From: a virus
Length of the DNA: 64,000 nt
Virus record (IMG/VR): IMGVR_UViG_3300042691_037350
Span: 32,001 to 96,000 of that record
Direction: 5' to 3' (one strand)
Shown: positions 23,376 to 33,686 of the stretch, in pieces
Position numbering within the stretch: the stretch's first letter is position 1
How the letters are laid out: each line of letters starts with the position of its first letter
Made by a program: the position numbers and the translations under genes
Notes under the pieces: model-generated
The model's input: the letters and a program-made list of their open reading frames with translations, nothing else
The model's database searches: none
Told to the model about the DNA's origin: nothing

Positions 23376-26300
23376 ATGTCTAGAGGATTTAATTTAACGG
23401 CTGAAATCAATCTCCGTGGACCCTCCAATATTCGCACCGTAGTTGCCGATATTCGCCGTCAATTAGGTACTGTAACTGCCGATGTTAATGTTAGAGTTAA
23501 TCCCACGGCCATAAGAAATATTTCAGCTCTGAATCAGGCATTAGGTAGACTTAATACTACTTTAGCAGATACTAATCGATTAGGACTACAAGCAACTAAT
23601 ACATTAAATTCTTTAGCTAATGCTGGTCGTCAGGCCACAAATAGTATTGCTAATTTGCCAAGAAATATTCAAAACGCATCAACTGCTGTAAATAGATTAA
23701 GTAATACAACTAACCAAGCTGCTAGAAACTTACAAGTAGCTAGAACCGAGTTTGAAGAATTTGGAAGACAGTCTGCTTTGGCTATTAGAAGATTTGCTGC
23801 GTTCGCCACAGTAACAGGAGCTATTTTTAAAGTTACCAACGCGATCAGCTCTGCTTCGGCCGAATTTATAGCATTTAATAAAGAACTAGTAAGAGTGGCT
23901 CAGGTTACCGACACGTCCGTATCTAATCTAGGGGGTTTAGTTAAAGAAATTACATCTTTATCTACCAGATTTGGCGTAACGTCTAAAGAATTAATTCAGG
24001 TATCTAGTACATTAGCTCAGGCCGGTTTGAGTGCTAGAGACACAGAAAAAGCTCTTAAGGCTTTGGCTCTTAGTGCTATGGCACCTTCTTTTGATAGTTT
24101 GAATGATACGGTAGAAGGCAGTATTGCTTTAATGAGACAGTTTAATATTGGTGCAAAAGATTTGGAAAAAGCATTAGGCTCTGTTAACGCTGTTTCTGCT
24201 AAATTCGCCGTAGAAGCGAGCGATATTATTACTGCTATACAGCGAACCGGTGGTGTGTTTGCTGCTGCTAGTAGAGGTGTAAGCGAAGGCACAGATGCTC
24301 TTAATCAATTTATAGCTGTATTTACCAGTGTGCGTGCTACTACTCGTGAAAGCGCAGAAACTATTGCTACCGGTTTAAGAACTATTTTTACTCGCGTTCA
24401 AAGAGCAAGCACTATTGATGCATTAAAAGAATACGGGGTAGTTCTTACAGATTTAGAAGGTAAATTCGTTGGACCATACGAAGCTGTTAGAAAATTAGCA
24501 GAAGGTTTGAATCAATTAGATCCAAGAGATTTAAGATTCTCAAGAATCGTTGAAGAGTTGGGTGGCTTTAGACAAATTGGTAAGGTTATTCCGCTTATTC
24601 AACAGTTTGCTACGGCACAACAAGCACTCATAGTAGCTCAAAAAGGACAAGGGTCTTTAGCTAACGATGCTGCCACAGCACAACAAGCGCTCGCGGTAAA
24701 AATTTCTAAAGTTAGAGAAGAATTTATAGCATTAATTAGAAGTGTTGGACAAAGCGATAGTTTTCAAAACTTTGTTAAATTAAGTTTAGATTTAGCTAGC
24801 GCTCTCATTAAGGTGGCAGATTCTGCGAAGGGTGTTTTACCAGCATTAACAGCTATTGCGGCTATTAGAGGTGCTAGTTTCTTAACTCAATTTGCTACGG
24901 GTTTTGCTGGTGGGCTTAGACGTAGAAATAGCGGTGGTCCTATTATGGGTTTTGCTAAGGGTGGTTTAGTACCTGGCTCTGGCAATAGTGATACCGTACC
25001 GGCGATGTTAACTCCTGGCGAGTTTGTTATTCGTAAAAAAGCTGTCGAAAGTTTAGGAGTATCTCGTTTATCTAATATTAATAAATATGCTAATGGGGGT
25101 CCGGCCAAATCTCCAACTAAAACATTAGAAAAATATTATACAGATTCATCTAAAATTAATTTAGGATTAGCTAATAGTAAATCTTTATCTAAAGAAGACA
25201 GAAAATCTTTAGCATCAGATGTTAAGAATCTACGCCAGCTTAGAGCGCAGGCACCAACACAGGTTTATAGTGCTATCAGCAGTGTGGCTTTTGATAGTAT
25301 GGCAAGACAAACTGGTTTTAATAAAAAAGCAGCAGAAGGAGCAGGTCCTCTCAAAGAAGATAGGGTTTTTGCGGCAGAAACTCAAAAAATTATCGGTAAA
25401 GCATTTAAACTACCAGGCTTTTTATCTACTAGCAAAGAATATTCTGTAGCAAAAATGTTTCTAGATAATGCTCCGAGAACAGATAATTTTGGAGCTATGC
25501 TAAACATTAAAACAAAACAGGGCGCCAAAGGCATAGATACTGTTAGTTCTTTGGGTGGAAAACAAATAGATGTATCTAAGACAGAAATAGATCCTAGATC
25601 TGGTAAACCAACCACATATAAAATGAATCAACCAGATGCTGAAAAAGAAGTTATATTACAGCCACGATCACGTTTTAAGATTGATAAGGCTTCATTTTCT
25701 GGGTTTTTAGGGGGTAATAAAAATTTATGGATGGATGTGCAACAGTTTAATGAGGGTGGTTTAATTGAAGATATTCGTGGAGGATTAAGACAGGTCGGGG
25801 CTGCTGTATTAGAACCAAACAGCAAAAGACCAAAATCAGACGTTTTATTTAGTGTTACAGAAAATAAAATCAAAAATGCTTTGGGTCTAGATAAACAAGA
25901 GTCTATAAAAAATTTGGGTTTTAGTAATAGACTCGATATGACGGGCATAGTATCTGGATTAACTACCCCAACATCAGATACTTTTAATGCCGCTCTCGAT
26001 AATGGTATTGTACAAGGCATCAACTCGGCTGCCGCTCAAATATCAGAAAAGCTTCAAGTTAGCATAGGTTCTATAGATGACTCTACTAAAAATGCATTTT
26101 TATCTGGAATTAATACTGGCACTAGAGGAAATTTATTCGAAGATATCCTAACATTAATGAGCGGTAAATTCGAAAGAATTTCTGGTAGAAATTTCGATTT
26201 TCCAAATGGTATGCCATCAATTAAAGAAGGTGATTTCGCTGGTTTACCAAAGAAGTGGATTGACGCTAAAGCATCTTTTGGTAGAGCAACTAGAAGCGGC

Positions 26301-33686: not shown

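Follow-up and report, generated by a model that had tools for sequence, protein, structure and literature searches.

Interchangeable enzyme-like cassettes in a giant tape measure protein of an uncultured tailed phage

The window analysed here is a stretch of 64,000 nucleotides of viral DNA (positions 32,001 to 96,000 of the IMG/VR virus record IMGVR_UViG_3300042691_037350, which is 122,474 bases long with a CheckV completeness of 82%). Our subject is one uninterrupted open reading frame (ORF) within it, at 23376..33686 on the + strand (the strand of every feature described below), encoding a tape measure protein (TMP) of 3,436 residues that we label P0001. It is the tail TMP of a large uncultured tailed phage and, as judged by sequence comparison, a member of a widespread metagenomic family of giant TP901-type TMPs of 1.9–5.8 thousand residues. 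Proteins of this family share a conserved N-terminal core, long scaffold segments and a module of about 60 residues (GG ... DTVPAxLTPGEFV ... GG) repeated 0–8 times; past the first module lies a 'cargo bay', in which interchangeable globular cassettes are bracketed by [FY]-A/N-x-G-G motifs in linkers that the structure models leave disordered. This modular cargo architecture is strongly supported, while delivery and processing of the cassettes are plausible by analogy with known TMPs. Taken as a whole, we consider it fairly probable that P0001 is a giant TMP with exchangeable enzyme cassettes which are carried into a new host to act early. A first-pass annotation of the window had described the gene as a segmented polyprotein for effector delivery; its observations are partly confirmed by our analysis and its interpretation is partly supported.

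The first 510 residues of P0001 form the TP901-type tape measure core that had been recognised in the first-pass annotation. PF10145 matches residues 191–384 (E 1.3e-22, 81.1 bits, cut-off 33.2) and TIGR01760 matches residues 154–460 (23835..24755; 82.3 bits, cut-off 28.8), both above the curated cut-offs of these family hidden Markov models (HMMs), and P0001 is also matched by PHROG families 28 and 4211 (phrog_28, phrog_4211), each annotated 'tail length tape measure protein'. Identity in the core is 42–75% to most relatives.

The first cassette occupies residues 576–795 (25101..25760) and is, on the strength of its modelled fold and family match, a genuine C3/VIP2-type ADP-ribosyltransferase (ART) domain. 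Residues 566–805 scanned alone match PF03496 (ADPrib_exo_Tox) with an E of 1.2e-8 and 35 bits (cut-off 23.4), although the Pfam scan of the whole protein did not list it; the family is above its cut-off in 18 of the 20 members of the ART alignment (A1), and a six-frame search of the genome with PF03496 gives this single match (window 25104–25742, 34.6 bits). In the AlphaFold2 (AF2) model (predicted local confidence, pLDDT, 86; predicted template-modelling score, pTM, 0.79) disorder is confined to the two ends that bear the GG motifs. Foldseek returns 147 PDB matches to this model at E<=1e-3 with toxins of the R-S-E ART type on top, namely Plx2a (E 9.9e-9), C2-I, CDTa, C3bot1, VIP2 and iota Ia (probability 1.0, E 1e-8 to 1e-7), and the target-normalised template-modelling (TM) score is about 0.6 against both Plx2a and C3bot. 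Against solved structures the ART profile gave chance matches only (E>0.1) and the sequence of residues 575–1074 alone gave no match, nor was any relative of the cassette found among GTDB species genomes. The serine-threonine-serine motif is intact (S684-T685-S686, at the end of model strand 118–121), as is the catalytic (Q/E)xE motif (E756-K-E758, at the start of model strand 193–196), and STS and ExE are both present in 46 of 46 relatives. The ART that had been proposed between modules 1 and 2 is therefore upheld in its fold, its PF03496 match, its STS and its ExE, and fails at the conserved arginine, which is Ser636 in P0001.

The second cassette, residues 796–1071 (25761..26588) with MATGG at its end, is a well-conserved, confidently folding domain without a known structural match here. 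The AF2 model built from alignment A2 (21 sequences, mean column identity 38%) has a pLDDT above 90 over some 200 residues. Column counts over 81 sequences show G918, E922, F940, D941, K965 and S967 in all 81 and D963 in 80, and in the model these fall in the order helix-E, D, strand-DxK, helix, with spacings of 19 and 22 between E922, D941 and D963. This is the ordered E ... D ... (D/E)xK set of PD-(D/E)xK nucleases, whose active-site pattern we take to be helix-E / D / strand-DxK. Across the ART and second-domain alignments, the catalytic residues are kept over identities of 29–58%. A unit of about 70 residues containing the E/FDF/DAK motifs is shared, according to hhalign (probability 96%, E about 1e-9), with two further cassette families, where it lies C-terminally; one of these has a HAD-like DxDxT part in front. 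The unit is thus a sub-domain of its own, perhaps a minimal nuclease core, or else something different such as an element for docking or release.

Both cassettes are bounded by the short GG motifs that had been reported around them: YANGG at residues 571–575, FNEGG at 791–795 and MATGG at 1067–1071, each at its claimed position. That such motifs are numerous in P0001 also holds, with 12 copies of [FYLMW]xxGG against 4.1 +/- 2.0 expected, about a threefold excess (2,000 shuffles, maximum 12), and 0–6 copies in each of ten other ORFs of the window. Among relatives, the motif flanks the ART on the N side in 42/46 and on the C side in 44/46, and the second domain in 62/74 and 53/74, respectively, compared to 11.8% of random 35-residue windows, and the motif-bearing cassette ends are left unmodelled by AF2 (pLDDT below 50). 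A conserved site motif is thus present at the domain boundaries, as in a GG-processed polyprotein.

The repeated module DTVPA[ML]LTPGEFV is present in five exact copies, at residues 539, 1077, 2155, 3102 and 3257, in agreement with the number first reported. The five 13-residue copies differ only by one M/L, while their codons vary synonymously (Thr ACC/ACA/ACA/ACG/ACT, Gly GGC/GGT/GGA/GGG/GGA); this scrambling indicates that selection acts on the peptide and that the copies neither arose by recent duplication of DNA nor serve as sites of recombination, and rules out a DNA-level repeat as the origin of the modules. Modules 1 and 2 share a shorter unit. Module 1 (residues 526–575, 24951..25100, delimited by motif and codon analysis) reads FAKGG ... 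DTVPAMLTPGEFV ... YANGG and is matched by phrog_35029 on residues 527–577; module 2 (residues 1067–1131, 26574..26768, of low pLDDT as a monomer) reads MATGG ... DTVPALLTPGEFV ... FNKGG ... FARGG. Modules 3 to 5 share a unit of about 60 residues (GG-VVYA ... GTDTVPAMLTPGEFVVN ... LPLL-AIN ... GG), with module 3, the long form (GGVVYA ... GTDTVPAMLTPGEFVVN ... LPLL.AIN ... GG), at residues 2139–2198 (29790..29969), module 4 at residues 3083–3145 (32622..32810) and module 5 at residues 3238–3306 (33087..33293).

The module itself is not peculiar to this phage. In a tblastn search, the module 3 unit was found in 41 records of cultured phages with very different hosts, where the rows listed are nearly all annotated TMPs and the module is a single copy. 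What is unusual here is the multiplicity of the module and not its existence. In Synechococcus phage S-SM2, the protein SSM2_012 (L002 5002-7302), which adjoins gp26 and is annotated 'transmembrane protein', has one KGG ... DTVPAMLTPGEFV module after hydrophobic stretches; it is probably the gp29-type tape measure of this T4-like cyanophage. A profile search of the module against solved structures gave chance matches only (E>0.1), and AlphaFold leaves it unmodelled as a monomer. The homotrimer prediction for module 3 (25-sequence alignment) scored 0.01 against a mark of 0.42, which speaks neither for nor against self-association.

Exchange of the cassettes is seen when relatives are compared. 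When 8,000 candidates from a word-indexed search with residues 560–1100 were scored, 450 proteins (1,889–6,013 residues) reached E<=1e-3. The comparison covered 129 proteins of at least 1,800 residues (1,917–5,786). The ART is present without the second domain in 40 of these giant proteins, the second domain without the ART in 62, both in six and neither in 21, proportions which are biased towards the two cassettes as the set was gathered by similarity to them. The relatives have 0–8 modules, and the cassettes start at widely different positions, residues 546–1749 for the ART and 502–1390 for the second domain. Cutting the relatives from GG to GG yielded 482 module-free segments in 214 clusters, among them a family of 143 residues in 35 proteins and one of 420 residues in 12 proteins. 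This comparison of related TMPs had been set beforehand, with variable cargo in a constant frame as the expectation, and it bore that out: the inserts differ among relatives in their kind, their number and where they sit, against a background of retained core and modules.

Some of the other inserts have consensus motifs of their own, including those of a HAD phosphatase (DFDxTL ... TARP ... DDD), a P-loop NTPase (GPAGSGKT) and an E ... RIDA ... EIKS pattern; cassettes with such motifs occur in P0006–P0008 and P0011 (cluster 3), P0063/P0064/P0077 (cluster 6) and P0053/P0071–73 (cluster 5). These motifs suggest that HAD-type and P-loop enzymes are among the other cassettes. An exhaustive search with representatives returned 51 clusters, nearly all of them giant TMPs, and the ART and second-domain clades are almost confined to such proteins. 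IMG/VR holds eight ART-bearing loci, on contigs of 49–231 kb. Among GTDB species genomes we found one relative of the core, on a 2-kb contig of a metagenome-assembled genome labelled Proteobacteria, which is uninformative on the host.

We propose that the TMP leaves the tail before the DNA and forms a channel across the envelope, and that the cassettes would be carried with it into the newly infected cell, possibly after being severed from it by cleavage at the GG motifs. Once inside, the second enzyme and, in relatives whose R-S-E set is complete, the ART would act on targets of the host ahead of any phage gene expression. The better known TMPs offer precedents for parts of this sequence of events, as they are described to exit the tail first and to build a periplasmic channel; the gpH protein of lambda forms such a channel, and an unknown protease cleaves it at an unknown site within a glycine-rich region, and several TMPs carry peptidoglycan hydrolases (PMC12617516). 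That over a hundred uncultured relatives swap inserts suggests an undescribed route for injecting enzymes together with phage DNA.

Several points weigh against this reading, and we give them here together with the alternatives on which they bear. Cytoplasmic injection, cleavage at the GG motifs and activity of the cassettes are all steps that we infer. An ART needs NAD+, and the domain must therefore reach the cytoplasm and cross the inner membrane, while the passages of PMC12617516 dealing with TMPs show them spanning the periplasm and not delivering domains inward. The same source gives six TMP copies and a lumen of 3–4 nm for lambda; with six chains in such a lumen there would be no room for folded domains of 25–30 kDa side by side. 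For passage through the tube the cassettes would have to be unfolded, stretched out or offset from one another, with folding to follow. Just two globular cassettes were identified in P0001, so that the several delivered enzymes of the first-pass annotation are not borne out. Finally, no cultured phage was found to carry the cassettes, either by megablast of 20 kb, which showed no shared DNA, or by tblastn with residues 1–1200, which gave distant cores or the module only; without a cultured carrier, virion proteomics cannot be used to check the reading.

With regard to processing, no member of Peptidase_C48 (PF02902), Peptidase_C39 (PF03412) or Peptidase_S78 (PF04586), the only protease families searched, was found in the 82%-complete genome, nor was a Macro (macrodomain) or ADP-ribosylglycohydrolase family detected in it. 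Such absences count for little in a genome that is very divergent and only partly recovered. Pfam and NCBIfam scans of P0001 itself showed no peptidase family and no embedded zincin metallopeptidase (MPTase). It may be that the cassettes are real and the protein is never processed, with the [FY]AxGG motifs and the DTVPA modules being structural (flexible joints and short beta units, setting the register of the TMP chains or docking them to the tube, hub or membrane) and the enzymes acting while tethered to the TMP channel. We would give this explanation a nearly even chance. It accords with the failure to find the protease families tried, with the common use of Gly-Gly as a flexible linker, and with the generality of the module in TMPs, given that the 41 cultured-phage records and the S-SM2 protein in the gp29 position have it once and are all without cassettes. 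On the other side, the fixed aromatic residue at -5 and small residue at -4, seen at 42–44 of 46 ART boundaries, are more specific than a linker requires, and lambda gpH provides a case of a TMP cut in a glycine-rich region (PMC12617516).

The identity of the second cassette is the next point of doubt. Structural modelling of the segments, which the first-pass annotation had recommended, recovered the ART fold by Foldseek; the second domain folds confidently, but neither a fold match nor an HMM match accompanies the conserved E/D/DxK residues on which its designation as a PD-(D/E)xK nuclease had relied. With the model of this domain Foldseek gave no PDB match at E<=1e-3, BFVD gave none, and a wide VIA-align search none that was convincing; the best score in the ESM Atlas was 0.79, to unnamed viral clusters. 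Nuclease families were matched by 0 of 21 members in Pfam at E<=5 and by none in NCBIfam, and a PDB profile search with the alignment returned chance matches only (E>0.1). The nuclease label is thus a motif-level lead only, and we put the chance that the cassette is a nuclease or phosphodiesterase at about one half. Rather than a nuclease, the unit of about 70 residues may be an element for docking, release or chaperone recognition, or the domain may belong to another enzyme class, which we hold to be a serious contender lying somewhat on the improbable side. It would fit the absence of a nuclease fold or HMM match in these searches, and also the fact that two other cassette families end in the same unit, one of them with a HAD-like N-terminal part. 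It does not account for the invariant set of two acidic residues and a lysine, spaced by 19 and 22 in what is presumably the PD-(D/E)xK order, and fold searches often miss small PD-(D/E)xK cores.

The third difficulty is the ART of this particular phage. The residue at 636 is arginine in 44 of 46 relatives and serine only in P0001 and its 99%-identical twin P0002. R644 is present in these two proteins only, and no other family-conserved arginine substitutes for the one at 636. The NAD-binding arginine of the R-S-E type lies on or near the first strand; in C3 and VIP2 we take it to be the residue directly after the aromatic, i.e. the position of residue 632, which in this family is Ser in 41 of 46 sequences and N, T or A in the other five, and never Arg. 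The arginine of the family may have been displaced from 632 to 636, judging from the alignment, and P0001 has none at either position. Since serine replaces a family-conserved arginine, the activity of the P0001 copy is doubtful; we estimate the chance that it is catalytically active at roughly one third, and the ART of this phage may be weakened, inactive or retargeted.

The serine in P0001 and its twin would also fit an explanation in which the enzymes do their work in the cell that makes the virions, at a late stage of infection or while tails are being assembled, and not in the next host, with the ART here a decayed remnant that serves as length-adding TMP filler. The TMP is synthesised in the producer's NAD+-containing cytoplasm, and the lack of a flanking immunity-type gene of at least 80 residues would be tolerable in a doomed cell. 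The first-pass annotation had already noted that no adjacent immunity gene is evident, and this is confirmed for + strand ORFs of that size: the nearest ones end at 23291 and start at 33714, with none within 23291–23376 or 33686–33714, so that there is no sizeable flanking immunity gene (smaller ORFs were not listed). Nevertheless we regard this explanation as unlikely, as the presence of STS and ExE in 46/46 relatives and of Arg in 44/46 implies purifying selection on catalysis across the family, and a late cytoplasmic enzyme has no obvious need for fusion to a virion protein, whereas the clades are almost confined to TMPs. Least of all do we favour the view that the cassettes are domain-level mobile elements, in-frame insertions of a selfish kind spreading among TMP genes without benefit to the phage: their patchy distribution, their variable positions and the nuclease-like motif in one of them would suit it, but it is very improbable given that an ART has no homing role, that catalytic residues are conserved across divergent members, that synonymous scrambling shows the boundaries to be conserved as protein sequence instead of as targets in the DNA, and that the Pfam scans show no intein or Hint signature, for which reason an intein or homing origin was rejected.

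The reading of P0001 as a carrier of enzyme cassettes could be extended to a phage-wide system. Giant TP901-type TMPs would then be generally loaded with cargo, with [FY]AxGG marking the release sites for a protease or for self-cleavage upon ejection, and the freed ARTs, the new-fold E/D/DxK enzyme and the HAD-like and P-loop domains would form a host-takeover or anti-defence set that passes through the tube before the DNA, much as in type VI secretion systems (T6SS) or contractile injection systems. We think this extension rather improbable at present.

The segments of P0001 beyond the core and the two cassettes had no family match in the Pfam and NCBIfam scans and were not folded; nor did the scans find a cell-wall enzyme family in the protein. 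Two of the unmatched segments hold hydrophobic or glycine-rich stretches. One such stretch, hydrophobic, glycine-rich and glycine-zipper-like by Kyte-Doolittle window and counts of small-xxx-small motifs, comes after module 2 at residues 1298–1365 (27267..27470), and glycine zippers in TMPs have been linked to membrane passage (PMC10240207). The sequence suggests that the scaffold segments are helical, one of them with glycine-zipper-like hydrophobic stretches. Comparison with P0002 revealed a divergent patch at residues ~2210–2885 (30003..32030), with 13–77% identity and indels compared to 99% in the remainder of the protein. It is the sole region in which the two differ, begins about 12 residues past module 3, and is glycine-rich at first (G fraction 0.17–0.22 in residues 2301–2500), then rich in charged and helix-favouring residues.

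The G+C content of the window is approximately 27–40%. The TMP gene and its neighbours, among them fibre-like genes and a number of very large ORFs, form a block of one orientation, in which the gene is preceded by ORFs of 100 and 292 residues and followed by ORFs of 1,424, 533, 1,316, 543 and 2,655 residues. The Pfam scan of 18 neighbours gave collagen, Mtd_N and PTR on the fibre genes plus two weak matches and nothing else, the ten neighbours scanned against PHROGs gave none, and no tube, chaperone or distal-tail family was seen among the neighbours in either scan. Most ORFs of the structural block at 12295–23291 and 33714–53687, including those of 1,424, 1,316 and 2,655 residues downstream, have no Pfam match among those scanned. 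Since nearly all neighbours are without a Pfam or PHROG match, the phage appears to be very remote from studied phages, and neither its tail type (contractile or not) nor its host can be deduced from these matches.

Directly before the TMP gene, the ORFs of 100 and 292 residues (22114–22416 and 22413–23291, +) overlap by four bases, and the C-terminal end of the latter consists of short D/E-G-R/K-hydrophobic repeats; tail assembly chaperone genes usually occupy this position. Further upstream, a 3,363-residue ORF (759–10850, +) has a collagen-like G-x-y run at its start followed by repeated 'GGTNN...' units and no Pfam family, and looks like a giant tail fibre. An 862-residue protein (13692–16280, +) has two matches to Mtd_N (major tropism determinant N-terminal), one phage tail repeat and one collagen repeat; it is a fibre, and diversity-generating mutagenesis may act on it.

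Enzymes that travel in the virion and act ahead of phage transcription are known from heads (T4 Alt, P1 Dar, N4 vRNAP and the MuF toxins), and to our knowledge the enzymes known in TMPs are wall-degrading only. If our reading is true, the tail lumen would join the known delivery routes by way of a TMP family with cytoplasm-type enzymes in an exchangeable bay. Such a family would also provide a concrete case for TMP cleavage sites, the lambda site and protease being described as unknown after 40 years (PMC12617516), and would supply the genuine mosaicism of which a 2023 survey, finding TMPs to look mosaic by sequence, could confirm no recent case (PMC10684548). In the main texts that we consulted, no TMP is described that contains an ART or another enzyme of cytoplasmic type, and the DTVPA...GEFV module is not described either; such architectures could, however, be listed in the supplementary tables of PMC5512222 and PMC10684548.

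Among known systems, the processing of lambda gpH to gpH* resembles the scheme proposed here in that the TMP, once the tail has been assembled, undergoes cleavage in a region rich in glycine (PMC12617516). It differs in being a single C-terminal cut without enzyme cargo, and sequence likeness to the GG motif was not examined. TMPs with wall enzymes (T5 pb2, staphylococcal phages, mycobacteriophages) have an enzymatic domain inside or at the end of the TMP that is released at infection, but these enzymes act on the periplasmic wall, whereas the ART here would need cytoplasmic NAD+ and protein, DNA or RNA targets. T4 Alt is an R-S-E type ART packaged in the virion which acts on host proteins at injection; it is a separate protein inside the head, not part of the tail, and is likened to the present domain by description only.

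The polyvalent proteins described by Iyer et al. in 2017 (PMC5512222) combine several conflict enzyme domains, including ARTs, in one polypeptide that is proposed to be delivered with DNA and then separated. P0001 resembles them in having at least two effector-type domains, the ART and the second conserved enzyme-like domain. Their processing is proposed to depend on embedded zincin peptidases, which were not seen here, whereas P0001 is mostly structural scaffold with a small bay, and the terms 'tape measure', 'tape-measure' and 'TMP' do not occur in the main text of that study. The Sle1-type effectors of actinobacterial contractile injection systems are described as TMP-related, modular and tube-loaded, with exchangeable domains (PMC13277306, 2026). 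They are presented there as cargo of a bacterium's own phage-tail-like particle and vary in a C-terminal domain, whereas P0001 is a bona fide phage TMP with internal cassettes.

MuF (SPP1 gp7-like) proteins occur fused to VIP2-type ARTs or to other polymorphic toxin domains. In the VIP2 fusions, a PF03496 ART of the R-S-E type is likewise attached to a virion protein that is thought to exit with the DNA, and in Microbacterium phages such a fusion is described as a predicted part of the virion (PMC7302621). MuF is a head protein with a C-terminal toxin and usually an adjacent immunity gene, whereas here the protein is a tail TMP and the cargo is internal, in an exchangeable bay between modules, with relatives of that cargo almost only in giant TMPs according to the exhaustive search. 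The giant cassette-bearing TMPs are a family so far undescribed, which belongs with these systems among the virion-delivered effector domains.

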